Source of the DNA: a virus
Direction: 5' to 3' (one strand)
Length of the DNA stretch: 64,000 bases
Virus record (IMG/VR): IMGVR_UViG_3300029365_000529
Coordinates: 14,196-78,195 of that record
Below, in pieces: positions 4,083 to 63,183 of the stretch. The position numbers were made by a program, and so were the translations under genes. Within the stretch, counting starts at the first letter, position 1. Every line of letters begins with the position of its first letter. The notes beneath the pieces are model-generated. The model searched no databases. It saw only the letters and a program-made list of their open reading frames with translations, and had not been told where the DNA came from.

Positions 4083-4092
4083 ATAACCAACA

Positions 4093-4133: not shown

Positions 4134-4191
4134 TAATGAAACAATCTACTACCTAATTAACACAACTAATAAACATGAAAAAAAGTAAAAT

Positions 4192-25509: not shown

Positions 25510-25521
25510 ACCATAAAGATA

Positions 25522-25553
25522 AAGGGTGAGTCGAAAGATTCACCCTTTTCTTA
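25522..25553. terminator. bidirectional terminator between convergent operons
   Basis: 8-bp stem AAGGGTGA/TCACCCTT with 10-nt loop, A-run upstream and T-run downstream. Confidence 0.6.
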
Positions 25554-29807: not shown

Positions 29808-29810
29808 AAA

Positions 29811-29850
29811 GAAAGGAGTGAGCCTTGCGCCCACTCCTTTATTTATTTAT
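29811..29850. terminator. bidirectional terminator shared by the lipoprotein operon and the giant gene
   Basis: Stem GGAGTGAGC/GCCCACTCC (one mismatch) with loop CTTGC, A-run upstream and TTTATTTATTTAT downstream. Confidence 0.6.
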
Positions 29851-38800: not shown

Positions 38801-41800
38801 CGAAAGATTTACCCTTCGCAAGCTTTCTCTCCTTGCGGTTGCCATCCTCGTCAAACTCATACACACCATTGCTTACTTGGCTGTAAGTAGTCAATACATA
38901 GTCATATTCGTCTGGCAGCTTTCCATTCTTTTCGATGTAATCAAGCACTCGCTTCACCTCGCTCTTCGATGGCAAAGCAAATACTACTTTTCCGTCTGAG
39001 TCGGTAATGGCAGCTTCCTTGGCGCTACCGAATACAAATGGTCTTAGGTCTGGGCTGCCAATATCCACCAAGTCACGGTAAACATCGCTCAGCAATCCTG
39101 CTGTCTTGGTGAAATATACAGGAACCTGACCCTGCTTCTTGGCGTATCTGATAAGTGAAGCAGCCTGTCTTCCCTTACCGATACCTGTCATATCTCCAAT
39201 GATGAAGGCATTGCCCTTCTTTGCCTGCTGCAAGGCAAGGGCTACAGAGTCAACCTGCTCTGCAGCAAGATGAGAATACAAATCATCCTTATCATTATAG
39301 CCCAGCTCGTCAACAAGGAACTGGTCGGCATCGCCCAACTTTTCAAGATTCTTGTTTACTGCCTCCTGCTGATCGGCAGGCATCACGGCTTTCAGAGTGA
39401 ATGGATTTCCACTCTTAGGTGTATAGGTAACTTTCTCGGTGCTTAATCCACGTACGGATTTGTCCACCCGCTGTAATTGTCCCCGTGGTCCGCTTCCGCT
39501 CCCGGCGTTGGAAGGCTCATCAGTACTTGGCTGAGCGTCATTCCGTCCAGCTCCTCCTGATCCATTTCCTCGCTGCTCATTGGTTCCAGTGGTTGGTTCT
39601 TTGCTTGGAGAAGGCTCTGTCCCTGTTCCGTCTGCTCTACTATCTCCATTAGGAAGTCCTCCATCTTGTCTTGGCTCGGTTCCTCGTTGATTTTCCAAGT
39701 CATCATGGGTTCCTGATACGGAAGTGGAGTCAAATAGGTCAGACTCTCGCTCACCATCTGGTTTGCTTCCTCCTCGTTCTCCTGCTCGTACTCTCTCTTT
39801 AGGAGTACCAGCAGCGCCTTGTTTATCAAGTTCTGGTTGAGCACTTCTTGTTTCTCCTCCGATGGAAGAATCCATCCGTTCACCTCGTAGTATATCATCT
39901 TCAATTCGTTTATAAAGTTCGTCATAATCTTTCACGGTCTCTGCTCTAGCCTTATCCTTTACTGGTGGAAAGGCATTTTCATTCAAGCGTCTTCCGTTTA
40001 TTAATATAATACGTGTAGGGTAGCTGGTTCCCTGCTTTGCATAGAGACTGCCATCCACATTAATCACGTCCTCCACATTATAGTGGCTATAGAGATAACC
40101 AAGGAAAGCCTTATCTTTCGGATTCAGACTTCCGTTCTTGGCGTATTCCGTCTTGCCGCCGACGATAATGGCTGCACGGCCATCGTCTTTCATGCTCTCC
40201 AAGGCATTGATAGCCATCTGTCCTTCCAAAGAAGAAATCTTATAGCCGTCATACTCCTTAGGGGTAGCACTACCGAATGGTGGGTTTGTTACCACCACGT
40301 CAACGTCCTTGTCTGCAAAAGGCTGAGTTCCGTCCTGACTGGTCACGTTCTTGAAGCCCTGTCTTCTCAGGTTCGCCAATCGCTGGGCATCAATATCGTT
40401 CACATGCACCTTATCCATTGGCAAGCCGATGGTAAGCATACCGTTGCCGGCACTAGGCTCCAGAGTACTCTCAATCACCTTGCCGTTACCCTTCACATAC
40501 ATATCCGCAAGGAAAGCGTAAGGGGCAGGGGTAGAGTACTGCTGCTTCATCACTCGCTCAGAATCACGCTGGTTGAGGCTAGGCTGATTCTCATAGAGTG
40601 TCTTGATGCGTTCAAACTTCACGGCATCGTTGGTTGATTCAGAAGAAGCGATACCTCTTGCTCGCTTAACAATAGCAGTCTCAGCAAGCTCCTGCAAGTC
40701 CGTGTCCTTAATATCCTTCAAGCCAACTCTTTCAGCGATTTGTCTCAGTTCAACTATTCCGTTAAACTTATGCTTGAAACCCAACTTTATGTTCACGGTA
40801 TCAATAAACTTCTTCTCAGCCATCTTTCTCTCCTCGGCAGTCTTTGAGTCACCCACCAGATTCTCCTGATGCTTAGGCGAAGTTTTCTCGTAGAAGTCAG
40901 CCCAATCCTTCAAACTCATGCGCTGCTCACCATCGCGATAGCGGATATTCATCATCTGCTCATAGATAGCATCCACGTCTTCCTTCTTAAAGAGCTTGGC
41001 AGCAGGAGCAAACTCCTTGCGCATTTCCTTCACCACGTCTTCAAGATTGTGCATACCTCTCTTGATTCTCAGATAAGCATTTTCGGCCATGGCGCTCACC
41101 AGCTTAGGCAATACTTCCAACTGTCTAGAGTTAAGACCAATAAACGAAGCGGATATTTCGTCCTTACCGGCATTCTTGAGCATATCCCAAAGGTCATTAA
41201 CCTTCTTGTTGGAAGCTGCTACTGCTGCATCGTCAGCCTTCTGCTGAGGCTTCTTCTCTGTCTCAGCCTTAGTTTTCTTCTCCTTACCAAAAGCTTCTGC
41301 TGCATTCTTGATTCCTTCCATAGGGTCAGCAGATGGTTCCGTTTTAGGAGTCTCAACCTTTGGTTCAGTCTTCTGTCCTCTGGTCTTGGCAAAGATACTT
41401 TCATAGATAGCACGATGCAAATCATCTGTCACCTCACCGTTCAGATAATCAAGAGCCATATCCTTGGATAAATCATCCACGTCAGCCTTCATGATCTCCT
41501 CCTCAGTCAGAGGATGCTCCTTCTTGAATTCCTTGGCAGCCGCCGCAATCGGGTCAAAAGTAGGGTCTGGCTTCTCTTCCTTAGGAAGGAGTGGGAGAGG
41601 TTTTTCTTTTACCTTACCGTCAACATATTCGACAACCTCATTCAGGTCGCCAAACTTCTTGCCATCATACTCATAGTATGAGCCGGTATATTCTCCCTTA
41701 TCGTTTGGCTCATCAACCTTGATAACCTCCTTGTCGCCATCAATAAGAATCTTCTGCCTTGTGATAGGACCGTTCTCAGATGGAGTTTCGGTTTCCTCGT

Positions 41801-44800
41801 CAGTAACCTTAATACGACTTTCAAGTTCTTTGTTTACTAAGTCGTCTGGTTCTTCTACTCTTGGTCGTTCTGGTTCTGTTCCTGCTTCTGCTGGTTCATT
41901 TCCTCCTGATGCTTCTTGTTGAGGTTCTTCATTGCCTGAAACATCATTGCCTCCTTCAATTTCTGAATGTCCTGTTCCATAATCTTGCCATTTTTTAAAG
42001 TTCAAATACTCATTAATTAACTCTTCCTTGGTAGGAGCTGCCTCAAACATATTGCCCTCGCCAGTATTTCTAGCCTTAGCGATGCGGTTGTATTCGTCAA
42101 GCAAATCTCTGAAATCAGAAACCTTGCCCTCCAAGGCTAAAGCCATCATCTGAGAGATAGAAGAGTAACGCTTAGCCGCATCCTCACCGAACATGTCTGG
42201 TGTTCTCAGCAGCGTATCAACCTTATTGCCACCCTGTCTTGCCTCATAGAGCAACTGTATAGCCTGATCAATCTCATCACGAAGAGAGAACTCACCCAGC
42301 TTCATGTTGTCCATTACCGAGCGGATAGCGTTGATAGCCTTATTCTTCACCGTAGAGTCGATGCCCAACATTCTGATAGTCTCTGGCTTGAAGATTGAAC
42401 CCAACAGAAGGTTCTTCACATACTCCCTGCCTTGTGCAGAAAGCCGTTCAGGACTATCCATCATCTGTGCCACCTCGTTCTGTCCGATGATGCCTTTATC
42501 TACTAACGTCTTCACCAAGTCATTTATTGCCTTGGAATTGTTAAAGAAAGCATCAAGAGAGCCATTTCCCTCAATCTCTGCAACAATCGCACCTACTTCG
42601 TCAGAAGTCAAGGTCTTAGCCTTGGCAACCGCCTGTTCGGTATTGCTCTGTGTCTTCTTCTCGTTTCTGTTGAATTTGGAGAAGGTAGCCGTATCGTATG
42701 GCAGTCTCTCATCCGTCACCAATACAAGACGTGGATGCTCGATTCCACTCTGCTCAATCTGCTCTCTGGTAAAGCCGAAGTTCTCGGCATTCTCCAAAAG
42801 GTCGTTGATGTATTCTGCGTCTGTGCCTTCCTTTGCAGCCTTCTGTCCTGCCATGGTTCTACCGTTACCATCATAAACGATACCCTCGTCAGATACCACT
42901 GGCACCTGCTCGATAGCCATACCGTTATACTTCCTAGCAATCTGGTCCGTATTCTGCTGAGCCGCCTTGTCGTGCTCATAGTCACGGTCATTCACGGTTC
43001 TGCCCTCAGCATCGGTAGGGAATCCCTCAGATTTCTTATAGCCATTGTTCACATCGTGAGAAGGAGTAAGACTTTCTGCCGGCACAATCTCATAGTGTCC
43101 CTTAATCTTTGTCTCTCCGTCAGGCAGCATTCTTGTACGCTTGTTACCCACCAGTCTTGGTGCATTCACAAACTTCTGTGCAGCCACGCTACCAGCTTCA
43201 TGTGCGCCCTCAGTCTGTTCTGTATTACCCACAGTCTCCGCAACCTTCTTGGCAGTCATAGCCTTCTTGATATTCTGAGCGTGGTCCAGCTGCTTCTTGG
43301 CAGCTTCAATAGTCTGATTCTTCAAAGTCTCCTGCTCCATGATGTCGTTAGGTTCGGCGGTATAGTCCACCTTCATCTTCTCGGCATCCTTCAAAGCCTT
43401 CTCTGCTTTCTGAATCTGTCCGTCCACTACCTTCTCGGCATTATCCCCGAAATCCTCAGTAAGAATCTCCGCACTCTGCTCAGGAGTCATTTTCTCATAG
43501 TCAGGCGTAGGTCTTCCCTTGCTGTCCGTAGCCATAGGAACATCTGAACCATCGGCAAACTTACGGGTAGGCTGAGGCTGCTCTTGTGGTACAAATTTCT
43601 CGGTTTTGGTATTATTTTCGCCCGATGCGGTATTATTTTCGCCCGATGCGGTATTATTTTCCTCATTTGTGGTATTATCTTGTGGTGCTTCCTGCTCCTT
43701 TGGCTGAGGCTTGGCAGCATCCTGCATAGCTTGCTCCTGTGCTGCCTGATTGTATGGCTCAGAGTTCTTCATCTGTAATCTCTGACGATATTCTGCAGCA
43801 AACTGGTCGATAGGCTGATTCTGAAACAGAGTAACCTCATCTGCCTTCACATAAACCATTTCCCTGGTATTAGGGTCGAAGCAGACAAGCATATCGCCGC
43901 TACCTTCCTTGGCTCTACCTGTAGTCTGGTCAAAGGCAACATCACCCGAACCAACAAGAAGTGTTCTTCCGTTGCTGTCTTGCACGTACAAAGCTTGCTC
44001 GCCATTCATCGGCTGGCCATTCAATGTTCCGTGATAGCTCCAATCAGAAATAAAGCTCTTCACATTTTCCTCTATGACATCAGCAGTAGCTTCCTGCATA
44101 CCCTGCACTCTAGCGTTCGCATTAATATATTGGGCAAGTGGGGTCAACTCTTCTTGGGTCAATCCATTCTGAATGAGTGCATCGTAAATCTGTGCCGGTG
44201 TCAAGCCCTGCTGGTGCAATTTCTCAAATGTTTGCTTGAACACATCGTTGCTATCCATTGCTTCATCAACCGCCTGTTCTGCATTCCGAAGGTTGCGCAA
44301 CTCATCAACTACCACGCCGCTATCCGGGTTGTCCGTTCCCAGACTATGCTCCTCGGCAACCGTCTTGCCTTGGCTGGCAGACTGGTCTGCGTGTGGTCTC
44401 CAGCTAGGAAAAAGCTCATCTTCGAGTGCTCTCTTCACATGATAGAAGATTCTGTTCTCCTCATCGGTACGCTTCATTGGGTCCTTGCGCATGATTTTGT
44501 CAATATCAATAACAATGCTTCCTTCTTTACCAAGAATTTCTTTGATAGAAGCCATGAAGTTATTAGTATAGCCTCTGCTTTCTGATCTGAGGTAGCCAAG
44601 CAAACCGTTTTTGTCCGCATACTTCTCCCAGTCAAGATAGAGCGCACTCTTCTGGTTGCGCAACTCATTAATCAGTCGGGCATTATTCGGGTCTGTAATA
44701 TCCTTATTCTCGTCATATCCGTTTTCTTTAAGAAATCTAAACGCTAGATTAGTGACAGTTCCATCATCATCTAAGAACTGCATATCCTTCATTCTTGCAT

Positions 44801-47150
44801 AGCCCATCAGCGACATCATATCGTCATTATCACGATAAAGCTTCTGCTTGTAAAGAATAGCTCTGCGCTCATCGGCATTCTTATAAGAGGTACGTGTAAG
44901 CAGTGTTCCGTTCTTGGTGTATTCCAGAATCTGCTTGTTTTTCACGTCGTTCACGCTTCGGTAGCTTTTGCCTCTTGTCGTGTTAAACAGTCCCATGGCC
45001 GCATTCACCTTCTCTTTGGTGCTCTGAGAAACGTCTGGGTCGTTCATAAAATCCGTGTAAGCAGTCTTATACTTCGGGTCTCTTGGGGCTGTCTTCGATG
45101 CACGGTCCATCTTTGTAAAGGCATCCATCAGATTCTTGCCCGATGCAGAAGAAATCAGCTCGTTCTTCTCATCAGGAGTCAGACGAATATCCACGGCGAT
45201 AGGGGAACCGTTGTCATTCTTGCCAATCACGAAATTACCACCGCTGTTATGGGTAAGATGATGCAGGATATTGCCCATCTTCACGAAGTTGCTAGGTTCG
45301 CCAGCCTTGAAAGCACCCACCATCACCACGTCTTCCAGCCAAGTGCCGAAGGAAATATCCTTGTCGCCAGTCACGTTGTCGGCAACCATCATGGTTCCAG
45401 CCTCAACACCGAGACCTGCGGCAGTAGCACCAAACTTCTGTGCGCCATGAAGCAATCGCTCTCCAGTGCTCTTTTCCATGCCGGTGATTCCGAACTTGGA
45501 AACCCAAGGAGACATCACCGCACCAGATACACCGAACATAGCACCAGTTACAGCACCGTGTTCTGCACCTTTCAGACCAGCCTCACCGATAGCCTGCAAA
45601 GAAGTATCATCGCCAGTAGAAGCCTGATTCAAAGCAGCACTCGCACCCGAATATCCTGCAAGATTCAGCGAACTTGTAGCCGTTCTAGTGCCCAATCCCG
45701 ACATGATCTTCTGTGCCGTTGTCATATTGGCAACCTTGAAAGCCATCTGCTGTGCTGTAAGTCTCTGTGCTGCCTTCATCACGCCAGCCTTCACCAGTCC
45801 GTTTGTCAGAACTCGGGTTCCTGCATTCACGGCAGCACTCGCACCTGCACCGATTACGGCAAGCGGACCAGAATCTGCAGCCATGTTTACGGCAGTAGAT
45901 GCGAATCTCGTACCGATGCCCGAGCGATAGGTTTCATCCTTGTGACCGGCCACCTTCTGAATCTCTGCATCACCGTCTGCGATAGCGATACCTTCCTGCA
46001 ATCTCTGTCTGGTATCTCTAGACATCACAGATGGAGCCACCACCATACCGATAATAGAGTTGCTGAGGTTCTTGGCAATGTAATCAAGCGCACCATGAGG
46101 CATGATTTCCTCCTGATTTCGCATCGTCAGAGCCTTCTGAGCATAGTTCATAATCTCTGGAGTAACGTATTTGTCCACGTATTCCTCCATACTCATGTTC
46201 AGCTTCTCTGCGCTCTCAGCAATATGGCGCTGCATACCCTTCTGCGAATAAATCTCATTGATTTTGCTGCTGAGATTGTTCATCAGAACGTTCTGACGGT
46301 TCACCTGTTCCTGCGTCTGAGCATCACGGAAAGCCTGTTCCTTTACCGACTGAGGCGCATAGATGCCGCCCATCTTGTCAAGGTTCTGCTGATACTGCTG
46401 ACGTGTTAATTCCTGCGCCTCATTTATGGAAGAATCAACCAGACTGAGAAGATCATTACCCAAAATACCTTCGGTCTGTCCGTCATTTCTTACGAACTTG
46501 TTGCCATCAACCTCATACTGGGCAAGATTCCTTGCATCGTCCTCTCTCTGCTGCTTACCTCTAGCCCTGCGAGCTTCAGGAGTAGAAAGCTGCTGCATCG
46601 TCTCGTTGAAGTTCTTGGCAGTAGGGGTTATTCTGCTTCTGCTGATAGGGGTTGCTCTCTGCTGTTCCTGACGTGCAGACTGCTCTTGTGCTCTTTGCAT
46701 GCGCGCGCGCATGTTGCTAGCCTGAGCCTGCTGCATCGGGTTCATCTGGTCGTTGCGCATGTGCATCAACTGCCAGTTCTTCATATAGTCTGTACCAGAA
46801 GCAGTAGCCGTACTAGGCTGCTGAGGTCTCCGAGGCTGCTGCCTCTGCTGCTTATACTGAGCTGCCACCTTCTGTGCCCTCTGCGAAGTAGTCATTGGCT
46901 TCTGCTGCGCTACCGGCTTCTGCTGAGGCTTCGGATTTACAGCATGGAGTCCAAGCCGCTGCGCAAACTCCTCATAGGAATTACTGGAAACAGCACCATC
47001 AGCATGAAGCGCATCATAGAGCTGCTTTCTGTTATGATAGCCCTGCTTGCCAGGCGCATACACGAACTTTCTGAAATGTTCTCTAGTTCCCGATACTGCG
47101 CCATCTGCTTTCAAGGCGTTATAAAGTTGGTCAAATTTATCTCCAGCCAT
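29847..47150 (-). CDS. giant polyvalent virion protein (5,767 aa): ParB-like + N6A methyltransferase + SNF2-family helicase + two HExxH zincin modules + hydrophobic segments
   Basis: Uninterrupted 17.3-kb ORF. Motifs confirmed by reverse-translating the + strand: DGNGR (ParB-like, about 42870), LEPSAGNG...VVTNPPFGSA (MTase motifs I and IV, NPPF at 40275-40286), GIGKGRQ (Walker A, about 39170), LILDESH (38715-38726), FFSATF (motif III), QMRGRIDRTGQ (motif VI, about 37570), IMLHEMIHEA (35062-35079), TIWHEVVGHKG (33584-33601). Confidence 0.85.
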   Translation of the reverse strand: MAGDKFDQLYNALKADGAVSGTREHFRKFVYAPGKQGYHNRKQLYDALHADGAVSSNSYEEFAQRLGLHAVNPKPQQKPVAQQKPMTTSQRAQKVAAQYKQQRQQPRRPQQPSTATASGTDYMKNWQLMHMRNDQMNPMQQAQASNMRARMQRAQEQSARQEQQRATPISRSRITPTAKNFNETMQQLSTPEARRARGKQQREDDARNLAQYEVDGNKFVRNDGQTEGILGNDLLSLVDSSINEAQELTRQQYQQNLDKMGGIYAPQSVKEQAFRDAQTQEQVNRQNVLMNNLSSKINEIYSQKGMQRHIAESAEKLNMSMEEYVDKYVTPEIMNYAQKALTMRNQEEIMPHGALDYIAKNLSNSIIGMVVAPSVMSRDTRQRLQEGIAIADGDAEIQKVAGHKDETYRSGIGTRFASTAVNMAADSGPLAVIGAGASAAVNAGTRVLTNGLVKAGVMKAAQRLTAQQMAFKVANMTTAQKIMSGLGTRTATSSLNLAGYSGASAALNQASTGDDTSLQAIGEAGLKGAEHGAVTGAMFGVSGAVMSPWVSKFGITGMEKSTGERLLHGAQKFGATAAGLGVEAGTMMVADNVTGDKDISFGTWLEDVVMVGAFKAGEPSNFVKMGNILHHLTHNSGGNFVIGKNDNGSPIAVDIRLTPDEKNELISSASGKNLMDAFTKMDRASKTAPRDPKYKTAYTDFMNDPDVSQSTKEKVNAAMGLFNTTRGKSYRSVNDVKNKQILEYTKNGTLLTRTSYKNADERRAILYKQKLYRDNDDMMSLMGYARMKDMQFLDDDGTVTNLAFRFLKENGYDENKDITDPNNARLINELRNQKSALYLDWEKYADKNGLLGYLRSESRGYTNNFMASIKEILGKEGSIVIDIDKIMRKDPMKRTDEENRIFYHVKRALEDELFPSWRPHADQSASQGKTVAEEHSLGTDNPDSGVVVDELRNLRNAEQAVDEAMDSNDVFKQTFEKLHQQGLTPAQIYDALIQNGLTQEELTPLAQYINANARVQGMQEATADVIEENVKSFISDWSYHGTLNGQPMNGEQALYVQDSNGRTLLVGSGDVAFDQTTGRAKEGSGDMLVCFDPNTREMVYVKADEVTLFQNQPIDQFAAEYRQRLQMKNSEPYNQAAQEQAMQDAAKPQPKEQEAPQDNTTNEENNTASGENNTASGENNTKTEKFVPQEQPQPTRKFADGSDVPMATDSKGRPTPDYEKMTPEQSAEILTEDFGDNAEKVVDGQIQKAEKALKDAEKMKVDYTAEPNDIMEQETLKNQTIEAAKKQLDHAQNIKKAMTAKKVAETVGNTEQTEGAHEAGSVAAQKFVNAPRLVGNKRTRMLPDGETKIKGHYEIVPAESLTPSHDVNNGYKKSEGFPTDAEGRTVNDRDYEHDKAAQQNTDQIARKYNGMAIEQVPVVSDEGIVYDGNGRTMAGQKAAKEGTDAEYINDLLENAENFGFTREQIEQSGIEHPRLVLVTDERLPYDTATFSKFNRNEKKTQSNTEQAVAKAKTLTSDEVGAIVAEIEGNGSLDAFFNNSKAINDLVKTLVDKGIIGQNEVAQMMDSPERLSAQGREYVKNLLLGSIFKPETIRMLGIDSTVKNKAINAIRSVMDNMKLGEFSLRDEIDQAIQLLYEARQGGNKVDTLLRTPDMFGEDAAKRYSSISQMMALALEGKVSDFRDLLDEYNRIAKARNTGEGNMFEAAPTKEELINEYLNFKKWQDYGTGHSEIEGGNDVSGNEEPQQEASGGNEPAEAGTEPERPRVEEPDDLVNKELESRIKVTDEETETPSENGPITRQKILIDGDKEVIKVDEPNDKGEYTGSYYEYDGKKFGDLNEVVEYVDGKVKEKPLPLLPKEEKPDPTFDPIAAAAKEFKKEHPLTEEEIMKADVDDLSKDMALDYLNGEVTDDLHRAIYESIFAKTRGQKTEPKVETPKTEPSADPMEGIKNAAEAFGKEKKTKAETEKKPQQKADDAAVAASNKKVNDLWDMLKNAGKDEISASFIGLNSRQLEVLPKLVSAMAENAYLRIKRGMHNLEDVVKEMRKEFAPAAKLFKKEDVDAIYEQMMNIRYRDGEQRMSLKDWADFYEKTSPKHQENLVGDSKTAEERKMAEKKFIDTVNIKLGFKHKFNGIVELRQIAERVGLKDIKDTDLQELAETAIVKRARGIASSESTNDAVKFERIKTLYENQPSLNQRDSERVMKQQYSTPAPYAFLADMYVKGNGKVIESTLEPSAGNGMLTIGLPMDKVHVNDIDAQRLANLRRQGFKNVTSQDGTQPFADKDVDVVVTNPPFGSATPKEYDGYKISSLEGQMAINALESMKDDGRAAIIVGGKTEYAKNGSLNPKDKAFLGYLYSHYNVEDVINVDGSLYAKQGTSYPTRIILINGRRLNENAFPPVKDKARAETVKDYDELYKRIEDDILRGERMDSSIGGETRSAQPELDKQGAAGTPKERVRAGERGGSKPDGERESDLFDSTSVSGTHDDLENQRGTEPRQDGGLPNGDSRADGTGTEPSPSKEPTTGTNEQRGNGSGGAGRNDAQPSTDEPSNAGSGSGPRGQLQRVDKSVRGLSTEKVTYTPKSGNPFTLKAVMPADQQEAVNKNLEKLGDADQFLVDELGYNDKDDLYSHLAAEQVDSVALALQQAKKGNAFIIGDMTGIGKGRQAASLIRYAKKQGQVPVYFTKTAGLLSDVYRDLVDIGSPDLRPFVFGSAKEAAITDSDGKVVFALPSKSEVKRVLDYIEKNGKLPDEYDYVLTTYSQVSNGVYEFDEDGNRKERKLAKGKSFGAAALSGQKRRDAIEKLMGNAYLILDESHTAGGNSGQGNYFQHIIQKAKNVTFFSATFAKRPDNMPIYALRTAMNEGGMKSSDLIDAVKRGGATLQEIMSQTLTQCGQMIRRERDMTGVTIDWKAIDDPERVQEQREQYDSIIGLFNDIINFQKKYVSSYVDERNDELAAIQSTMGIKKGTAALGIKNQPFASKAFNAVQQVLLSLKAKSAAERAIDYLKQGMKPVIALNNTNESQTGNLALGEEMDAPDLGTSLKKGLEGTLRYTQKDAKDNSESGYIKLSDLGDEAVDAYHELEKKIEQTSTGLSLSPIDVIKNELQKAGYKVGELTGRQTEFVYNDNGTVTKVKRADTDKKKLARDFNDGKIDALILNKSAATGISLHASSKYKDQKKRVMIVAQQQLDVNDEVQMRGRIDRTGQVARGAYEYVVSLIPAEQRLLMMFKAKLKSLDANTTSSQKSKFNEMEVADITNKYGDKVVREYMAEHLDLYARMADPFGWEKSNGDDLSRIDPQTLVASGGGVGEGEAGADASKLLGRMALLRVSEQEKMLQEIGELYANEIQRLNEMGENDLEITELPLKAKTLHKEVWKQGAEPGGDNAFADNTYIEKVNMAILKKPMKASEVKASQDGLTGGKTWDEYKTDKKAAVKEYFDQKIADETQKYEERAVKAATKAKEKYIKDGKKGQKDSGMSDEQIEKMAGYQYDNIYKQEKDKLNDVVKNLKAKAEMFERVLDTFDTNQTFVLPTDMNNPNELSGFGNSYGRLIDIKITDNYSPNASSVSFATLDGRRKITFPIAGKVGAGDNKADVISAIDNMTKQAAGMGDSHLRVLNQNFDNWDRLTSNESRKNGYIVTGNLMQALVDSKDQGLGGQLVKYTTDTGEVKTGILMPDRFDPKGLTTDAPINSVVDKFELSSWHGGIDEVTSSDGEVKVKRIDNNRGNFYELRVPKSKAKGGKYFMDENLLKLVNGNNFETRGNNMLAEFKPDQLKPVLDRLSKMGVKVQEERNTSEDERTHFREDRGLQYSKTDTKDVKNSRIIPEDVDKNVSSQIEKKFDSTIKDIEEHTEDRDKSLFADNLESALDEFSDLGRSVIEYYKNDYERKVEKLSGQHTGGHLGGKNDGKGNKGSYLLQYYKTILAVADRELAYRDARAKNLRETWGLQPGGTFTLGDVERIFKETNRDKEKAELFEKALNISKRLGVRIKVSPEDPNKRAGEADTRRNIDLYIDGITKTKAPDYAAPTIMLHEMIHEATMGAINLVKKGKAEGMLTPKQIEGVKTILEIYDRVKGDKERFKEEPYGLTDAYELTAQMADSRQRKAMDLSIWDKVVNAAHEFARKGDRSILQRLKDAWKKLFEVSEKDKMDKAINDIMDDFNETIDDISMNEIEQDGFSYKVTDKDELDRLNKEKTFRMYSGMQEVDGKLYSPMAAIIDGKRTDATEIGAWMGADERPDLVKNGKFQLVKTDKNPGAGEGPVPAAYNPYMHTSTSVMNDQFSGAYARGNIKVVEWEIPESEKTSGYHAEGAKNSVGLVPWTSGTVNSLLPKDRQRSVMLSRWRKAVRILPDEEVAEKIADQLRGTGLAIPWNVVTPSQLRELVKLGVPITTVEQGRQNPETKEKFLKQMAELEQEFPQAKFVNVKMTKDAYKEWGKDGGTKFRTDNGESNYPASSVESHIENVAQKTGGKVKMVSSVDEITNKAAKAAIEDGRKITGWYDEKTGEVHLYMPNIHDRYTAEKTIWHEVVGHKGMRELFGDERFDKFLREVWYDLDKPENAALKKLVDEERKFNPLNIYDAIEEGIARLAEDGKGEPGFWNGIKNKVSDFLHEIGYRIAPNTKDVKYLLWLSKNLQKNPNDPYWKMRVEAVKYRLDHERMPAVVAHDGMFYGNDAKVRSMDNLTKAEWNEATDGEIHFRTTPSAGTALDRYHRSLDEHGYMFTESYMDNMLSLKKLMNAIVPDKKIEDIASSENPYILQNTMQGAMSDAAQIFERNVMKPLDKAMAGVLDAFDGKKDDEKIRNFNLYMITKHGLERNRILYVRDALKYMRMNEKTKKLADTVEFDWNNEKATLDEKLERGDIDLKTYYERMDDFIRTYVDSDNKFDAGEHDYSGIHAIQEVAKSSDPYDDAEAIASVMDSEAKMESIKKGSVKDYWDKVKAATQYSIDTDYKNGLISRELYGHVSDMFNWYVPLRKYDEATAEDTYGYITEQGDPKSYIGSTIMRARGHKYLSETNVLAQIGAMGNRAIKNGGMNAIRQAFARFVRNNSNNNLVTETRVWYADDPITHTTVERYPDIPEDATADEINQIVADFNMEMKDLESKGLATKVYRRGRIGYKFQRAENKSQHIVDVKIAGRTHTFIINGNPRAAQALNGLLENSGAKGIMKPLSSISRMMAQLCTSYNPEFVMRNIMRDAEFASSNVTSKEGARYGALWTKYYAQLGLYKGASNISFKDLSGTTGLGLFAKYRNGTLDTSDKVQRYFKEFMENGGETGWVQIKNMQDWTKEYKKDVKSERSKIDKGGAALRDFFFGNLANINEVAENIARFATYCASRDSNRSIIRSVYDAKEVSTNFNRHGSGDAIKSFKNGEMTGGKAAARWAYGFTASYLRHCSMFFNAGIQSTNLLVKNLKNHPVGTSINMLAIPFALGALAALGNNVLIASEDEKDRKGVKDPYGELPDYVRRNNLCIYKGGGQFVTIPLAIELRAFYGLGDLAAGLTFSPNVSGQKNPALDAVGCMSQLVPVMDYLGNSSAGKEPLNETIKAISPSALSPFVEWELNTDWKGAPIERRGDWNENSPAWQRAYKGVPDGYLAVNKWVNAQTNDVAKGNEDMLGNSFLDMVTNPSMLNHYIGGIGGGAATFTERAIGVIKHGSDTETKDIPFLRSLLYTPSEQSSLQRTKSKWYNYKDEMEKTMANVDRLKSKNVPIDKRITNIGEYYHFQNSKEAAKVRVIELAEKQMKRWKKLRDKSSDTESINFANQNIDRIMMDAVDELDRLE
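43600..43680 (-). repeat. 21-bp tandem repeat (3-4 copies) inside the giant gene
   Basis: + strand GGTATTATTTTCGCCCGATGC twice, then two degenerate copies; encodes NNTASGE-NNTASGE-NNTKTE. Confidence 0.7.
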
Positions 47151-50159: not shown

Positions 50160-50381
50160 AATCTGTAATATTTAATATTGTTAACACTTCCCGAAAATTC
50201 AGGGGTGGGGAAAATCGGAAAACCGAAATCCAGAAAAAGGGGGTGGGGGGAGGCAGAATTTCTTTATTTGTATTATTCTACTATAATTTGCAACGGTGGT
50301 CGAAGGGGGTGGGGGTCTTGGGGTTGCCTGTTGTGCCTCGTCCACCTTGCCTGTCGCTCATCCACTCCACCTTTTAGCTGC

Positions 50382-51149
50382 CTACCCAAGTCTCGACAAG
50401 CCAACTGCCTTCTTCAAGCGGTATTGGTTCTTCTCCTCGGGAGACATCATGCTCTCAGCCAAGTGGTCGCTTGCAGCAGAACGAGCGGTCTCATTCATGG
50501 TGTGTGATACATTTGTGTTATCAATTGGCTTTTCATTTGAGCCTAAAGCGTTGGCTTTCACCGCTTTAGCACCATCGAGTTCTGACCCCAATTGGTTCAC
50601 ACCGAAATTGAACATCGCATTTGACGCATTTTGAGCCGCATCGCTAGTGGCTTGCGCCTTCTGCTGCTCGATTTGCTGACGTTCTCTAGACAACTGCTGA
50701 GTGTTTTGAAGGTGAGCGTCCTCCACATGCTGCTTGCGAGCCGTGTCCTGTGCCGCTACGTTGGCTATCGTGTCGCCCATAGCCTTATTAGCACTCTCCT
50801 TCGCCATTGCCACGCTTGCAGCAGTTCCACCGCCAACAGCAGCAGCGCCATCAGCCTTGCGGACATACTCGTCCTGTACTTCCTTCGCCCTTCTCATGAG
50901 GTTTTGACCCGCTTTCGTGTCAAGGTAGTCCGTGTTGTAGTTCTTGTCGTACCAAGCCTTCTCAGCGTTCGTTCTGTACGTGTTCTCCGCTTGTGCCCTT
51001 CTAGCTGCCTTCTTAGCCTTGTTAGCACCGAAGAGAGAGGAGCCAACGCCAAGCGCCAAGGATGCAGCACCTAAGACCCATTCTTTCTTATCCCCGAGAA
51101 CAGGGCAAGAGGTCAAATGCTTTGGGATTTTTGATAATATTTCCGTCAT
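50382..51149 (-). CDS. hypothetical protein with N-terminal transmembrane helix (255 aa from an internal start)
   Basis: Track ORF 50382-51311, trimmed to Met MTEILSKIPK because the conserved late-promoter motif and -7 box lie inside the longer N-terminal extension. Confidence 0.45.
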   Translation of the reverse strand: MTEILSKIPKHLTSCPVLGDKKEWVLGAASLALGVGSSLFGANKAKKAARRAQAENTYRTNAEKAWYDKNYNTDYLDTKAGQNLMRRAKEVQDEYVRKADGAAAVGGGTAASVAMAKESANKAMGDTIANVAAQDTARKQHVEDAHLQNTQQLSRERQQIEQQKAQATSDAAQNASNAMFNFGVNQLGSELDGAKAVKANALGSNEKPIDNTNVSHTMNETARSAASDHLAESMMSPEEKNQYRLKKAVGLSRLG

Positions 51150-51175: not shown

Positions 51176-51218
51176 GCAAATATATAATATTTGAAGGTTC
51201 GTTTTGCCGTGTTCCAAC
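51176..51218 (-). promoter_or_regulatory. late promoter: conserved motif plus -7 box TATATTTG upstream of the ejection-module operon
   Basis: TTTTGCCGTGTTCCAACC at 51201-51218; 17 nt downstream on the minus strand is TATATTTG (51176-51183), about 30 nt before the ATG at 51149. Confidence 0.5.
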
Positions 51219-51329
51219 CTCGGTCGAAATCGCCCCAAATCCCACCAATTTCTTTCTCGGGGCGCAACTCACCCCTTTTCCTTCTCCCTCTTCGCCCTCT
51301 AAAAGACCCATTTTGTAAACATACGTGAT

Positions 51330-51850
51330 TATTGTAAAGAAAAGACAAGTGGTTAATTATAAGCAAGTTAGTTTCAATCACTCCCGAGGAAGAATAAAAG
51401 CAAATTGTAAAGAAAGTTCTTATTTCATAAAAGAAGATTCTTTGCAAACAAAAAAGGGTTTTGCATTAATAGGTACGCACGCACGCAAGAAGTTCGTTAG
51501 CAAACTTTAACTAGCCGTATTTAGCCTTCTTGAATGTTTTTCACCCTAAATCAAGATAAAGTCGCTCATTTCTTGCGATTTTTGCGATTTTCGGGCAGTT
51601 GGTCGGGATTTCTCCCAAATTCGCAAGTTTTGAGCCGTTTAAGAGCCATTTGCAAGCAGATTAGAGCCGATTTTGTGGGTTTTTCGTAGATTTCATGGTT
51701 TTGTGCAAGATAATGCGCTCATCTAGGATTAAGGCTTTTAGAAGATGATTTAGGCGGTTTTGATTTTCCTAGTTGGAAAAATATTTTTTCCTAGTTAGGG
51801 AAATTGTTTTCTTTAGTAGTGTGGTTTCCTGTACTCTCTCTTCTCTTGTG
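51330..51850. other. 520-bp non-coding region with short iterated motifs (candidate ori, pac or regulatory hub)
   Basis: GCGATTTT x2 at 51575-51591; AGCCGTTT / AGCCATTT / AGCCGATTTT series; TTTTCCTAGTT x2 at 51764-51774 and 51786-51796. No ORF longer than 60 aa. Confidence 0.35.
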
Positions 51851-51887
51851 TGTTCTCCTTATGGGTGAGAGTGAAGAATCCTCGGTG

Positions 51888-51935
51888 GAGATAAGGGGGC
51901 AGCGCCCCCACGGGCGCAAGCGCCCTCCCCATGCC
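51888..51935. repeat. GC-rich twin-hairpin element, copy 1
   Basis: GAGATAAGGGGGCAGCGCCCCCACGGGCGCAAGCGCCCTCCCCATGCC; hairpins GGGGGC-AGC-GCCCCC and GGGCGC-AA-GCGCCC. Lies just after the end of the repressor operon. Confidence 0.6.
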
Positions 51936-51952
51936 CTGTGGGGCTGACGCCC

Positions 51953-52159
51953 TCACCACAAGCCTTGCAGCCACTTGCCGAAGGTGTATACCGAATACAG
52001 GTAGCACACCACGATGAGCAGTTGCAAGAGCCACTCAGCATACTTCACGGATGATTTCTTATGTTCCTCCACCTTCCCGAATACATTAAAGAGATAGGCT
52101 ATACAAACGAGTGAGACTGCACCGAAGGCGAGCCACATGATAATTTGGACTATAATCAT
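51953..52159 (-). CDS. small two-helix membrane protein (68 aa) co-transcribed with the repressor
   Basis: Overlaps the repressor stop in ATGA; two hydrophobic helices; possible superinfection-exclusion-type protein. Confidence 0.4.
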   Translation of the reverse strand: MIIVQIIMWLAFGAVSLVCIAYLFNVFGKVEEHKKSSVKYAEWLLQLLIVVCYLYSVYTFGKWLQGLW

Positions 52160-52455
52160 TTCGCTATAATCCTTAACTCATCAACTTGCTTGAAGAACTC
52201 CTCCAATGTATCGGCAGTATAGTGGATGCCCTTATAGCGGATAAAGCTAGCAAAACCTTCTTTGCTATCCTCCTCGAAGAGTTCAGACACCTTGCAGCCG
52301 ATTATCTCTGCCATTTGTTCAAGCCTATCAATACCAAACTTTTTGCGAGCTAACATTTGGCTAAGTGATATAGGCTCAATGCCCATACCTTTAGCCAAAT
52401 CTTTTTGCTGCATCCCATGTGCTTTTAAGCACTCTTTTATTCTCAATTGTACCAT
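52156..52455 (-). CDS. XRE-family helix-turn-helix transcriptional repressor (CI/Cro-like)
   Basis: LKAHGMQQKDLAKGMGIEPISLSQMLARKK is a typical XRE HTH; divergent from the early + operon. Confidence 0.65.
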   Translation of the reverse strand: MVQLRIKECLKAHGMQQKDLAKGMGIEPISLSQMLARKKFGIDRLEQMAEIIGCKVSELFEEDSKEGFASFIRYKGIHYTADTLEEFFKQVDELRIIAK

Positions 52456-52614
52456 AATTCTATTTTTTGTGGCAAAGATAATAAAAATATAGCATATAAC
52501 AATAACTATTACTTATTTTAACGCACAAATATAGTACAAAAACCATCTTGAAGCGCAAAGTTATGTTTAAATGCTATACTTTTGTGTAAAATATCGTTAA
52601 TAAACATAATAAAA

Positions 52615-52656
52615 TTTGGAGAGTATAGCATAAATACTTATCTTTGCACTCGAAAT
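52615..52656 (+). promoter_or_regulatory. early promoter PE1 (TTTG-N20-TATCTTTGCACTCGAAA)
   Basis: TTTG at 52615-52618, 20-nt spacer, TATCTTTG at 52639-52646. A near-identical copy is found at 63133-63183. Confidence 0.55.
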
Positions 52657-52939
52657 CAAGTTAGTTTGATTTTAGAGGAACGATGGCACGTTTAGAACTT
52701 CACGTTTAACTACCTCTATAAAAGTACAGATTAGTCGGGAAAGTCAGAGAGATAGAACTCTTCAAACATCAACGGAAAATGCGACCGAGTTAGTTGCCAC
52801 TCTAAAAAGCAACAAGACAAAGAAGTCTCAAACACTCATCACGCAAGATGTAAAAACGCTAGTCGTGTTAGACTAGAGAAACATCGAAACACGTCAACCC
52901 ACGGACGTTAAACGAAGGGAGTTAGGTCACATGTAACTT

Positions 52940-53179
52940 GTGAACGTTGGGCGCAAACGTACACCTGCACTTTGTATGTATAACATTTTAACAACAACGA
53001 CAATGGAAACAACAAAGATGTGTTTATTAGAATTGACTAAGGCTGATGCTATGGTATTAGTCAACGTAATTAGAAGAACTGCAAACGAGAATCCATTTCA
53101 TTGGAAGGAAAGCAGCGTTGAGAAGACAAGAGACCTGTACGATAACGTAATCGCTCAGTTGTACGACTATAAATATTAA
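52940..53179 (+). CDS. hypothetical early protein (start may be the internal Met at 53003)
   Basis: First ORF after the roughly 280-nt leader. Confidence 0.4.
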   Translation: MNVGRKRTPALCMYNILTTTTMETTKMCLLELTKADAMVLVNVIRRTANENPFHWKESSVEKTRDLYDNVIAQLYDYKY

Positions 53180-53184
53180 AGACT

Positions 53185-53580
53185 ATGGCAAAGTTAGCAG
53201 ATTATATCGCTTGTAGCCTAATTTATCACAAGGGCAACAAGTTCGAAATCGATGAAGAAAGAACCATAATGCCTTGCATATACGAGGATAGTGACGAATA
53301 TATCAAAGAGTATTGGGGAGACAACGAGTTTATCGGGAAGTTTCCTGTAACGTACAAAGGAAAGGAAGTACAAGTTCTTGTGTTCAAAGACTATGAAGAG
53401 TACTTTGGAGTATTCAAAGACGAAGAAAACAAGGGCATGAAGACGTATATCGTAGTACAGGAATTCTCAGAACCCGAGAAAGAGCCAAAGATTATCGCTC
53501 AATTCAATGAAAGGTGGCAAGCAGAACATTACGCTTGTCATCATGAAGGGAGACTTTGGGTGTATGAAATGAGTAAGTAA
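53185..53580 (+). CDS. hypothetical early protein (131 aa)
   Basis: Six-frame ORF; followed directly by GC-rich element copy 2. Confidence 0.5.
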   Translation: MAKLADYIACSLIYHKGNKFEIDEERTIMPCIYEDSDEYIKEYWGDNEFIGKFPVTYKGKEVQVLVFKDYEEYFGVFKDEENKGMKTYIVVQEFSEPEKEPKIIAQFNERWQAEHYACHHEGRLWVYEMSK

Positions 53581-53589
53581 CAATGTGGG

Positions 53590-53637
53590 GAGATAAGGGG
53601 GCAGCGCCCCCACGGGGCGTACGCCCCTCCCCACGCC
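53590..53637. repeat. GC-rich twin-hairpin element, copy 2
   Basis: GAGATAAGGGGGCAGCGCCCCCACGGGGCGTACGCCCCTCCCCACGCC; the second hairpin is GGGGCG-TA-CGCCCC, stem sequence changed but still self-complementary relative to copy 1. Confidence 0.6.
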
Positions 53638-53847
53638 TAACGGACAAAAGATTATAATATATGGCAGTAGCAAAGAAGATAGAGTTGACGGCTAATCAAT
53701 TGTGGGTGCTTAAGTATATCCTGCATGAGGTTGCCAGTAGTGAGGAAGGTGCTAACGGCATCTACCTCACTCCAAAGGAAAGAGTTTCACTCGGACAGAT
53801 AAGAAGTAAATTGTAAAGGTATGTTGAACCATTTAAAATTTTAGAGT

Positions 53848-54081
53848 ATGAAAGTATTTCTTTTTTATCGTACAGATAATTGGAACTCCCATGATAGCAA
53901 GGATTTGGTATATATCGGGACAAACAAAGAGGCTAGTATCAAAAAACTAATGAAGTTGGAGAGCGAGCCAATCACTGAGGAACAGGCTGAGGACATCCAA
54001 AGAATGAACCAAAGCCAATGCAATAACGTGGGATATGAATGGGTAGTTGAGGTTTGGACTCCTAACCATTTGGTAGAGTAA
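53848..54081 (+). CDS. hypothetical early protein (77 aa)
   Basis: Six-frame ORF. Confidence 0.45.
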   Translation: MKVFLFYRTDNWNSHDSKDLVYIGTNKEASIKKLMKLESEPITEEQAEDIQRMNQSQCNNVGYEWVVEVWTPNHLVE

Positions 54082-54265: not shown

Positions 54266-54523
54266 ATGGCAAATAATATCGTAGAGTTCAGTATAGTTAG
54301 AATACCCGCTGAAGGAGGAGTAAAAGTTGAACCGATTTCCTGTAAGATATGCACTGATAATCGTGTGAAGGAAATCAAGAAACAGATGAAGAAGTTAGGC
54401 TACAAGTACAAAGGACGTGACAGGGATATGTACGACAACATTTTCACGAAGTATATAAAGCTAAGCGAAATCCTTCCCGAGGAAAAAGTATTCTATAAGT
54501 ATCAAATAACAAGATTAAAATAA
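54266..54523 (+). CDS. hypothetical early protein (85 aa)
   Basis: Six-frame ORF. Confidence 0.45.
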   Translation: MANNIVEFSIVRIPAEGGVKVEPISCKICTDNRVKEIKKQMKKLGYKYKGRDRDMYDNIFTKYIKLSEILPEEKVFYKYQITRLK

Positions 54524-54529
54524 ACGAAT

Positions 54530-54697
54530 ATGGAAAAGACAATAACACTTACAGGCGGTGAAATATATAATATTACATCAGCTATTAACGATAGAATAAT
54601 CCTTCTAGAGGAATGTATTTCAAGCCACGATGATACTCCTATAACGCACAAGCGATTGAAGGAGTTTAAAGAGATTAAAGCAAAGTTGAACAATTAA
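54530..54697 (+). CDS. small protein (55 aa), paralog A of a tandem pair
   Basis: MEKTITLTGGEIYNITSAINDRII...; same N-terminus and 5' nucleotide sequence as the next gene. Not in the track (<60 aa). Confidence 0.4.
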   Translation: MEKTITLTGGEIYNITSAINDRIILLEECISSHDDTPITHKRLKEFKEIKAKLNN

Positions 54698-54709
54698 AAC
54701 GATAAGAAA

Positions 54710-54892
54710 ATGGAGAAGACAATAACACTTACAAGCGATGAGATTTCAAGCATCACTCTCGCTATATACGACAAGGTAATGAACCTTTCACAAGCAGCTC
54801 TTATTTGTGGTGCGGAACTCACACCGAATGCACAACAGAGAATCGAGAACTTAAAGGCAATCGCCCTTAAATTAAATGGTATAGAATCTTAA
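54710..54892 (+). CDS. small protein (60 aa), paralog B of a tandem pair
   Basis: MEKTITLTSDEISSITLAIYDKVMN... Confidence 0.45.
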   Translation: MEKTITLTSDEISSITLAIYDKVMNLSQAALICGAELTPNAQQRIENLKAIALKLNGIES

Positions 54893-58878: not shown

Positions 58879-59295
58879 ATGGAAAAGGCAAGAATCATAA
58901 TCTACGATGATTGGGCGATACTCGATGAGACAGAGACCTTCTTCAAGGATAAATCCTATCTTATTGGCATCGCCAAATCTACCCTTCAGCAGACGCCCGA
59001 TGCGGTAATTGCTGAAGTTTGGGTAAATGACCGGCTGAAAATGAAGTTCCGCATCAATAGCAAGGGCAAGGTTCAGCAATGCAAGGTCAGTCAGCATCCA
59101 GGGTGGGGTGGTTGCAGAGAGCGAGCCGGAACACCGAGCAAGGGGGCAGCTGCCCTCATCCATAGGGTTGTGACGCATGTAAACGAAGATATGTTTGAGT
59201 TTTGCGAATCCCTCGGTCGCAACAAAGCCGAATGGATCAGACAGGCTATAGCCGAGAAACGAGAACGTGAAGACAAGGAAAAAGCAGGGCACTAG
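58879..59295 (+). CDS. hypothetical protein with possible C-terminal ribbon-helix-helix
   Basis: VTHVNEDMFEFCESLGRNKAEWIRQAIAEK resembles the beta-strand plus two helices of a CopG/RHH fold. Confidence 0.35.
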   Translation: MEKARIIIYDDWAILDETETFFKDKSYLIGIAKSTLQQTPDAVIAEVWVNDRLKMKFRINSKGKVQQCKVSQHPGWGGCRERAGTPSKGAAALIHRVVTHVNEDMFEFCESLGRNKAEWIRQAIAEKREREDKEKAGH

Positions 59296-59308
59296 GCTCT
59301 GCTTTTTC
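59283..59308. terminator. bidirectional terminator between convergent early (+) and minus-strand blocks
   Basis: Stem AGCAGGGC/GCTCTGCT (one G-U wobble) with loop ACTAG, A-run upstream and TTTTT downstream. Confidence 0.55.
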
Positions 59309-59310
59309 TG

Positions 59311-62603: not shown

Positions 62604-63132
62604 AATCTATAATTTTTAGTTCGACTTTCATTTAAGGGTACACCCCAACCTTTTCCGCACACCACTAGGGGGCGAGGATTGACCGACTTGAAATTTGGTT
62701 TTATATAATTATATATTTACCTACTCAAAGAGTACCAAATATCAAAAGTCTTACCTAGATATAGAAAAGCCATTCCGCAAGCCTTCTTCGTCCCAGTGTA
62801 TTACCTTTCGGTCGTGCGTTGCCTGTTGAGGTTGGTTGCTCAGAGCAGGACTGAAGGGATATATCTATCTAAGTTAGGGTCGTTTTATATATCGGCAGGT
62901 AAACCGAAGAGGACGATACTGATGAAACCTCGTATGTCTTGCCAAAAACTCGGGGAAAATAAAAATCCCCAAGTCGTGTGACGCCGACCTAGGGATTTCG
63001 TGATTTATATTGAACCTATTGAATACAGGTAGAATATCGAAGTCTTATATCAATCGTCACATTGACGAGTGCAAAAGTAAGAAAAGTATTTGAAACCGCC
63101 AAATTTCAACTTTTGCAAAATATAGTTAAAAA

Positions 63133-63183
63133 GTAATTAAAAATTTGTGTTATAAAAATGTTATCACTATCTTTGCACCCGAA
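63133..63183 (+). promoter_or_regulatory. early promoter PE2, near-identical core to PE1
   Basis: TTTG at 63133-63136, 20-nt spacer, TATCTTTGCACCCGAAA; shares -33, -7 and 9 downstream nt with the promoter at 52615-52656. Confidence 0.5.

Follow-up and report, generated by a model that had tools for sequence, protein, structure and literature searches.

Why should the repressor locus of a gut phage be flanked by two copies of the same GC-rich twin-hairpin element, and on which strand do these elements act? The window considered here (the whole stretch of 64,000 nucleotides [nt] that was analysed) is most of an uncultivated Bacteroidales gut phage. In it, an element of 49 nt lies directly downstream of a leftward immunity operon (copy 1) and again at the end of the first rightward early unit (copy 2). 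Comparison with related phages places the two copies in a multicopy family, present in the early and immunity region of a large group of gut Bacteroidales phages, in which a nearly invariant GATAA motif precedes a GC hairpin whose stem changes in sequence and stays complementary, and selection on a folded single strand is well supported. All members of the family lie on one strand. Tentatively, we read the elements as one-directional terminators of leftward transcription, a proposal against which several features of the family count and to which there are rivals, weighed below.

The 27-mer GAGATAAGGGGGCAGCGCCCCCACGGG occurs exactly twice in the window, at 51888-51914 and 53590-53616, both on the plus strand, where none is expected (100 shuffles). 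The identical run is in fact 28 nt long (51887-51914 and 53589-53616), and a repeat finder delimits direct copies of 49 nt with 84% identity at 51887-51935 and 53589-53637. These are the only two copies within the 64 kb, both are in the early region, and, one coding spot excepted, they are the top two GC-rich 40-nt stretches of a window with a GC content of ~42%. The core of copy 1 (51884-51930, plus strand) consists of an outer 5' arm, GGTGGA (51884-51889), the motif AGATAA (51889-51894), hairpin 1, GGGGGC-AGC-GCCCCC (51895-51909), a linker, AC, hairpin 2, GGGCGC-AA-GCGCCC (51912-51925), and an outer 3' arm, TCCCC (51926-51930). Copy 2 (53585-53634, plus strand) has the same order of parts, with the outer 5' arm GTGGGGAG (53585-53592), AGATAA (53591-53596), the same hairpin 1 (GGGGGC-AGC-GCCCCC, 53597-53611), the linker AC, hairpin 2 as GGGGCG-TA-CGCCCC (53614-53627), and the outer 3' arm TCCCCAC (53628-53634); it begins 5 nt past the stop of a 131-amino-acid (131-aa) gene and ends 26 nt ahead of the next ATG (53661). 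The outer stem, GGGGAG...CTCCCC, encloses both hairpins; it is lengthened to GTGGGGAG/CTCCCCAC in copy 2 and weakened in copy 1 by one T-C mismatch, a G-to-T change that is specific to this genome. The stems are of 6 to 8 bp and all-GC, the composite minimum free energy (MFE) is -36 to -44 kcal/mol on either strand, and in the minus-strand reading UUAUCU stands directly after hairpin 1. Copy 1 is accompanied by a third hairpin on the plus strand, GTG-GGGC-TGAC-GCCC-T-CAC (51938-51956, with the core GGGGC-TGAC-GCCC at 51940-51952), which overlaps the stop codon TCA (=TGA; 51953-51955) of a 68-aa minus-strand gene and is conserved in relatives with the loop variants TGAC, TAGC, TGGC, and TTGC. 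An earlier, sequence-only reading had described two copies with a common 27-nt run and with second stems that differ from each other while remaining self-complementary, one copy after the leftward repressor operon and the other after a rightward early gene, and apart from the slightly longer run that description is borne out.

Two copies by themselves are weak evidence for covariation; it is the relatives that supply real support. When viral contigs were scanned with a 22-nt core, 102 loci with 138 copies were returned, including many contigs of 37 to 79 kb with two direct copies spaced 1.2 to 2.4 kb apart. As that sample was chosen by the element itself, a second sample was picked by a neighbouring protein (50382-51149, minus strand), and in nearly all of these loci (n = 80) both positions were occupied. 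The same two positions are filled across >100 related genomes. The phage was also found in a metagenome-assembled genome (MAG) of Segatella copri, where the element is present, and in human-gut assemblies, and a public assembly collection lists one early protein in 81 of its blocks. Around the elements, which are themselves almost invariant, the genomes form a mosaic in which both the repressor module and the genes that lie right of copy 2 have been exchanged. In the window's clade, the stem of hairpin 1 is invariant with AGC or AAC as its loop, the linker between the hairpins varies (AC, GC, AA, or TC), and hairpin 2 takes the form GGGCGC-AA-GCGCCC or GGGGC(G)-loop-(C)GCCCC with many loops, independently of left or right position. 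Forms in which one hairpin has been deleted are present as well, and one of them retained hairpin 2 and not hairpin 1. When 45 distinct twin elements were aligned, the model of twin hairpins within an outer stem was 90% paired, and three hairpin-2 pairs had changed on both sides. The single long hairpin that RNAfold gives as the MFE structure of copy 2 was rejected, its pairing being lost in 13 to 14 of the 45 sequences with no covariation. The covariation within this clade amounts to only one or two independent events and is, alone, modest evidence.

More distant relatives were reached through an exhaustive search with the neighbouring protein, which recovered homologues down to ~30% identity; earlier searches gave close relatives only, and the other clades (~45 to 57% identity) were reached by putting a distant homologue first in the alignment. 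Several of these clades carry 2 to 5 copies in the first 5 kb rightward of the anchor gene. Their architecture is an invariant (G/A)AGATAA, a GC hairpin that begins with GG and ends with CC, then AA, and often a weaker second hairpin (GGGC-NNNN-GCCC or GGC-TTC-GCC). The stems of hairpin 1 differ between copies and between clades, and also between copies of one genome, yet are complementary, and 29 distinct stems were collected, among them GGGGGC/GCCCCC, GGGGGCG/CGCCCCC, GGAGGGGC/GCCCCTCC, GGTGGGGC/GCCCCACC, GGGGCGGT/ACCGCCCC, GGGAGGC/GCCTCCC, GGTGGGC/GCCCACC, and GGAGGGC/GCCCTCC. New stems of hairpin 2 (GCGGC/GCCGC, GTGCGC/GCGCAC, and GTGGC/GCCAC) were found there too. Contexts of AGATAAGG were then counted on one strand with no preselection for hairpins, and stems were compared by tables of position from the base. 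A perfect hairpin of at least 5 bp followed the motif in 78 of 108 distinct contexts, compared with 2% of random GG positions, and most of the contexts without a perfect hairpin were near-perfect or recombinant. At pair positions 3 to 8, G-C, A-T, T-A, and C-G pairs all occur, the first two G-C pairs are invariant, and the loops of hairpin 1 are varied (AGC, AAC, TGC, GTT, GCG, AGA, ACA, TGCC, and others). Since the stems vary and stay complementary at a frequency so far above that at random positions, structural selection is supported, and the earlier suggestion that the pairing is under selection holds in the window's own clade as well as behind AGATAA in distant relatives.

The family has a limit within this group of phages. 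No GC hairpin of the GATAA type was found in more distant members (loci L357-L362, L364, L365, and L368), the cultured phage BS-TP4 is without the element, and two loci (L408 and L433) have only a divergent form with a spacer between AGATAAGG and the GC hairpin. The absence from the more distant members and from BS-TP4 indicates that the family arose inside a subgroup. Seven loci (L371, L379, L380, L384-L386, and L406) have, 20 nt upstream of the true element in the window's orientation, an extra AGATAAGGAAGAC without a hairpin; the codons that end a conserved 117-aa open reading frame (ORF; …WEDKED*) contain it, so that two AGATAAGG motifs stand two helical turns apart. The same module, GTGAGCGGATAA-GGGGGCAGCGCCCCC-TCAA, was also seen in MAGs of rumen Bacteroidales (L186, L187, L190, L197, L198, L202, L204, and L205), where it lies within long GC-rich intergenic repeat blocks that have a convergent tRNA gene and a canonical terminator as neighbours; tandem hairpin repeats of ~52 nt are present in L197 and L200 as well, and a search of these MAG loci against Rfam returned tRNAs only.

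On which strand does the element act? Among 160 protein-anchored loci, 288 of 288 occurrences of GATAA with a GC hairpin lay on the window's plus strand and none on the other. In 71 of 188 distinct contexts the element abuts, as copy 1 does, the stop codon of a leftward gene on its right, 16 to 64 nt away, and each leftward module seen, the second one of locus L380 among them, carries such an element at the 3' end. About 68 of the 188 contexts are of the copy-2 type, 5 to 15 nt past the stop of a rightward gene and usually 25 to 45 nt before the next rightward ATG. By the textbook rule, an A-rich tract and a hairpin with no T-run following it make a terminator for the opposite strand. The phage's canonical bidirectional terminators, which lie at convergent gene junctions (4090-4135, 7925-7965, 25515-25550, 29805-29850, and 59280-59310, serving both strands), consist of an A-tract, a hairpin, and a T-tract; the one at 25515-25550 begins with AAAGATAAAGGG, an echo of the AGATAA flank of the elements, and one canonical bidirectional terminator of this phage has an A-tract nearly identical to theirs (AAAGATAAAGGGTGA...TCACCCTTTTCTTAT).

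With tails scored in the manner of d'Aubenton-Carafa, the minus-sense tail after hairpin 1 has a value of 2.46 ± 0.28 (n = 80 elements) against a minus-strand background of 1.07, and the phage's own canonical terminators have values of 1.9 to 3.4. The plus-sense tail of the element, at 0.14, is far below the plus-strand background of 0.71 and almost free of U, and on the minus strand UUAUCU(U/C)C comes after the GC hairpin in each of the elements. The sequence-only reading had stated that neither copy has a U-run and, for want of one, had set standard intrinsic terminators aside. The statement is true of the plus strand and false of the minus strand, and the exclusion fails because copy 1 follows a minus-strand gene and the minus strand carries the U-rich tail. 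The other roles which that reading listed (RNA stability or processing, a small RNA, or a protein-binding site) were too broad to be wrong, and no evidence found here speaks for a small RNA that stands alone; that reading did not notice the strict confinement to one strand, the invariance of GATAA, or that the elements form a multicopy family. Weaker hints also favour the minus strand. T..C ends on the plus strand (cGNNAg on the minus strand), with variable middle bases, are found in 23 of 36 distinct tetraloops and G..A ends on the plus strand in none, and single-sided stem changes gave A-C on the plus strand (G-U on the minus strand) three times as against G-T once.

We hypothesize that the elements are polar (one-directional) intrinsic terminator or insulator hairpins for leftward transcription. 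It is the reading we prefer, with a confidence that stops short of expecting it to be right, and we infer termination itself and its direction from the anatomy, conservation, stem covariation, strand polarity, and tail scores described above. Copy 1 would end the leftward repressor transcript ~20 nt after its last stop codon and would stop RNA polymerase before the leftward virion-protein operon. Copy 2 would block leftward (antisense) read-in toward the early promoter and the repressor, as would the further copies of like orientation that lie between early genes in relatives. Rightward early transcription would be expected to pass copy 2, as its RNA lacks U beyond the hairpin, and in the rightward mRNA the hairpins may serve as 3'-end or intercistronic decay barriers. 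Such a function, the most likely of those considered, is ordinary in kind and would be a detail of regulation, not a system of a new type.

With known intrinsic terminators the elements have in common a GC-rich hairpin followed on the minus strand by a U-rich tail, a short and borderline one, with a tail score like that of the phage's own terminators. The position of copy 1 after the last stop codon of the repressor operon also resembles that of the t_imm-type terminator of phage lambda, t_imm being the terminator that ends the prophage repressor transcript. They differ from ordinary intrinsic terminators in that the stems consist entirely of G-C pairs, the tail is a fixed UUAUCU and not a variable U-run, two or three hairpins stand under an outer stem, all are on one DNA strand, and about a third or more of the family has the "wrong" orientation, between rightward genes. 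If it is a terminator, the element would be an unusual variant, with all-GC stems, a fixed tail, several hairpins, and one-way action.

A number of observations count against leftward termination. The U-tract is short and borderline, with 4 U in the first 6 bases and then, in the window's clade, a C-rich sequence. The ~68 of 188 contexts that lie between rightward genes, copy 2 among them, have no evident leftward transcript to stop; a motif search to the right of copy 2 revealed no complete motif for a leftward promoter, and a canonical bidirectional terminator is already present at 59280-59310. GATAA is essentially invariant across otherwise diverged clades, where a mere U-tract should drift (for example, to UUUUCU). 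The counts of G-T and A-C in the stems of the window's clade are balanced (12 versus 11) and are not decisive for the strand. Finally, all 288 occurrences are on one strand whatever the gene orientation, and so absolute a polarity suggests a function bound to a single strand or to transcription in the rightward direction. The polarity, the invariant GATAA, and the copies between rightward genes together sustain a role in plus-sense RNA or in single-stranded DNA as a rival to leftward termination.

The rival closest to the rightward genes is that the element is a cis-acting RNA of rightward transcripts, in which GAUAA and the 3' AA are presented on a GC clamp of indifferent sequence and read by a factor of the phage or the host. 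An endonuclease might process the transcript there and leave mRNA ends that a hairpin protects; a factor of elongation or antitermination might pause or load there (similar to nut, or to the operon polarity suppressor [ops] site of a NusG paralogue); or the element could be a Rho-type attenuator like lambda tR1, which is a hairpin after the first early gene. We consider this unlikely. In its favour, all copies are co-oriented with the rightward early genes, those of the copy-2 type stand at a near-constant distance past the rightward stop codon, and the fixity of GATAA and of the first two G-C pairs, with the rest of the stem and the loop free to vary, matches the pattern to be expected if a flank-specific factor read the element by means of a structural clamp. 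A conserved structured leader also follows the early promoter, and in relatives there are plus-strand ORFs to the left of the leftmost copy, so that a convergent junction is possible there. In Bacteroides, moreover, NusG paralogues are recruited with the aid of a hairpin (PMC11685472). In the window's clade, by contrast, the region to the left of copy 1 is noncoding with no recognisable rightward promoter, and any RNA that crossed copy 1 rightward would run antisense to the repressor operon. Loop sequences are not kept, in contrast to boxB or put, and the loop ends fit GNNA on the opposite strand; no Rfam family matches, and no partner protein was identified. A broader version, to which we likewise give a minor share of our confidence, is that GATAA and the GC clamp form a strand-specific recognition module, in plus-sense RNA or in one DNA strand, for a dedicated factor of the phage or of Bacteroidales, and not a terminator. 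Such a module would serve to tag the borders of cistrons or cassettes within the early region, whether by programmed processing of mRNA, by the loading of a factor for elongation, or by exchange of cassettes, and may work together with the ~350-nt structured leader.

An action at the level of DNA appears improbable to us. In this case the element would be a module boundary for homologous recombination of immunity and early cassettes, or a single-strand hairpin for priming or nuclease entry through the d(cGNNAg) loops of the minus strand. The breakpoints of similarity between genomes do coincide with the elements, which are nearly identical between mosaic flanking modules; the variants of hairpin 2 are reassorted with respect to either flank and across the two positions, hybrid stems in two members of the family (loci L369 and L378) look recombinant, deletion forms have lost one hairpin between short direct repeats, and the polarity is strictly that of a single strand. 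However, homologous recombination needs conserved sequence and not compensatory stem changes, and the differences between the stems of one genome would prevent pairing between its copies. Two copies per 64 kb, confined to the early region, are unlike replication priming, and neither a dedicated recombinase nor an integron-type integrase was seen in the window. Less probable still, to the point that we would be surprised by it, is a selfish palindrome similar to repetitive extragenic palindromic (REP) sequences and bacterial interspersed mosaic elements (BIMEs) or to miniature inverted-repeat transposable elements (MITEs), spread into intergenic gaps and possibly common to host chromosomes. It would fit the several copies per genome just past stop codons, the identical 20-mer GATAAGGGGGCAGCGCCCCC in the GC-rich intergenic repeat blocks of rumen Bacteroidales MAGs beside a tRNA, and the lack of the element in cultured distant relatives such as BS-TP4, which implies a gain within a subclade. 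Against it, no presence/absence polymorphism with target duplications was seen, the same two positions being filled in >100 genomes; the copies within a genome have diverged and been compensated, as expected of old copies under structural selection and not of recent transposition; all copies have a single orientation; there is no GTAG foot; and neither a transposase nor a REP-associated tyrosine transposase was found among the proteins scanned, in a scan that was not exhaustive. On the counts of 2 copies per 64 kb, a 288-to-0 orientation, and fixed positions in >100 genomes, assignment to REP/BIME or MITE families was rejected.

Known phage and bacterial elements were compared in the same way. 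The nutL and nutR sites of lambda (boxA plus boxB) and putL and putR of HK022 are likewise paired elements that flank an immunity region, one of them after the first early genes, and they too consist of a linear motif and then a hairpin, with twin hairpins in put. They differ in being mutually inverted, each sense in its own transcript, whereas the elements here are direct repeats on the plus strand and the units that flank them diverge; here, too, loops are not conserved, relatives have several copies per operon, and there is no Rfam match. Antitermination RNA of the nut or put type was therefore rejected on its sense orientation and on the features of a conserved loop and a curated model. 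The intercistronic stabilising hairpins of Escherichia coli malE-malF (REP) and of Rhodobacter puf are also stable GC hairpins without a U-run that stand between co-transcribed genes, just past a stop codon, but they need no conserved flank or fixed orientation; REPs occur genome-wide and in both orientations. The early-promoter stem-loop (PeSL) cassettes of T4-type phages and the lambdoid "boundary" sequences resemble the elements as short conserved stem-loops that flank variable small early ORFs in a mosaic region, with the difference that PeSLs include an early promoter and no promoter motif accompanies the elements here.

Several other candidates were tried and rejected. An integron attC site does not fit flanks of GATAA and AA without GTTRRRY, and no integrase was found in the window. 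The initiation-of-mutagenic-homing sequence and hairpin target of a diversity-generating retroelement were set aside on a repeat of only 49 nt with unrelated upstream sequences and on the lack of a reverse transcriptase among the scanned window proteins; BS-TP4 has a reverse transcriptase and lacks the elements. For a hairpin promoter of the N4 type, the 5767-aa giant protein, which is of virion type, has no RNA polymerase domain. TTATCT as a leftward promoter resembles the TAnnTTTG -7 box and lacks the TTTG, and UAAGGAGG, present in some variants as a site similar to a Shine-Dalgarno sequence, is 25 to 45 nt from start codons with the hairpin in between. Rfam gave nothing relevant at gathering thresholds in the whole window or at E ≤ 10 in 51300-54000. 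Full-text literature searching with the core sequences returned unrelated primers only, a literature search on Bacteroides terminators gave no usable 3'-end maps, and a generic scan of viral contigs for twin GC hairpins was uninformative, most of its hits being unrelated GC-rich viruses.

These phages are abundant in human gut metagenomes, and almost nothing is known of how Bacteroidales phages control the lysis-lysogeny region. If the elements are polar terminators, they would show how an immunity module is transcriptionally isolated and would offer synthetic biology in Bacteroides an insulator part, in the form of a compact one-way stop of transcription with a defined sequence. If that proposal fails, the invariant GATAA and the strict polarity would point to an undescribed system of factor recognition. 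Either way, the family can be searched for as GATAA, a GG(N)CC hairpin, and AA.

Arguably, the more novel object of this region is not the hairpin element but the leader that lies between the two copies. This stretch (52650-53003, plus strand) is ~350 nt long and noncoding, and it begins at the predicted early transcription start. It is conserved in 102 distinct variants at 75 to 100% identity, including clades in which the neighbouring protein is ~48% identical to that of the window. A local MAFFT alignment of 26 variants analysed with RNAalifold gave 55 predicted pairs, 19 of them with compensatory double changes, and the leader had no match in Rfam. It is a candidate for a new structured leader or noncoding RNA.

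The genes around the elements are those of an early region with divergent transcription. The leftward immunity operon (51953-52455, minus strand) encodes an XRE-type helix-turn-helix (HTH) repressor (52156-52455, minus strand; HTH_3 on homologues) and a 68-aa membrane-like protein (51953-52159, minus strand), directly downstream of which is copy 1. Divergent Bacteroidetes-type promoters (52473-52646, both strands) were recognised by motif match and are putative in function: the leftward one has the -7 box TATCTTTG at 52480-52473, and the rightward one has TTTG at 52617 and TATCTTTG at 52639-52646 with a spacer of 20 nt. The first rightward early unit (52650-53580, plus strand) consists of the leader, a 79-aa ORF (to 53179, plus strand), and a 131-aa ORF (53185-53580, plus strand) and ends at copy 2, beyond which run numerous small early ORFs, likewise rightward. 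Leftward of copy 1 come ~700 nt of conserved noncoding sequence and then a leftward operon of virion and polyvalent proteins. This conserved stretch (51190-51887), between the promoter of the leftward virion operon (-7 box at 51184-51177) and copy 1, is without a convincing ORF; TTTTG motifs recur in it, and 51764-51810 is occupied by a direct repeat, TTTTCCTAGTT(G/A)G. The corresponding space holds rightward ORFs in relatives and an integrase in the cultured phage BS-TP4.

The window as a whole encodes a portal, a terminase-like protein, and tail fibres, and its nearest cultured relatives are the Bacteroides phages BS-TP4, BKO1-TP3, and BF1-TP2, with a portal identity of ~31 to 35%. Megablast of the window against the INPHARED phage collection gave 0 matches, and a scan of the window for tRNA and tmRNA genes found none. 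The giant polyvalent ORF of 5767 aa (29847-47150, minus strand) has ddrB-ParB, methyltransferase, Strawberry-notch (Sbno)/SNF2 helicase, and LPD38 domains. It comes after a weakly T7 gp14-like internal virion protein (50382-51149, minus strand) and contains a 21-nt tandem repeat in 3 copies at 43608-43681. In an intergenic gap of the leftward operon (50195-50330, plus strand) there are three G-runs of the GGGGTGGGG type, which are conserved in relatives and may have the potential to form a G-quadruplex or serve some other role. Two adjacent small early ORFs, at 54517-54600 and 54697-54780, are diverged duplicates over 84 nt at 70% identity. Farther to the right, a strong divergent pair of Bacteroidetes-type promoters (62955-63175) has TATCTTTGCACYCGAAA in common with the early promoter; the leftward promoter of this pair (-7 box at 63079-63072) is followed by a canonical terminator at 62999-62962, an arrangement from which a small RNA of ~105 nt is predicted.

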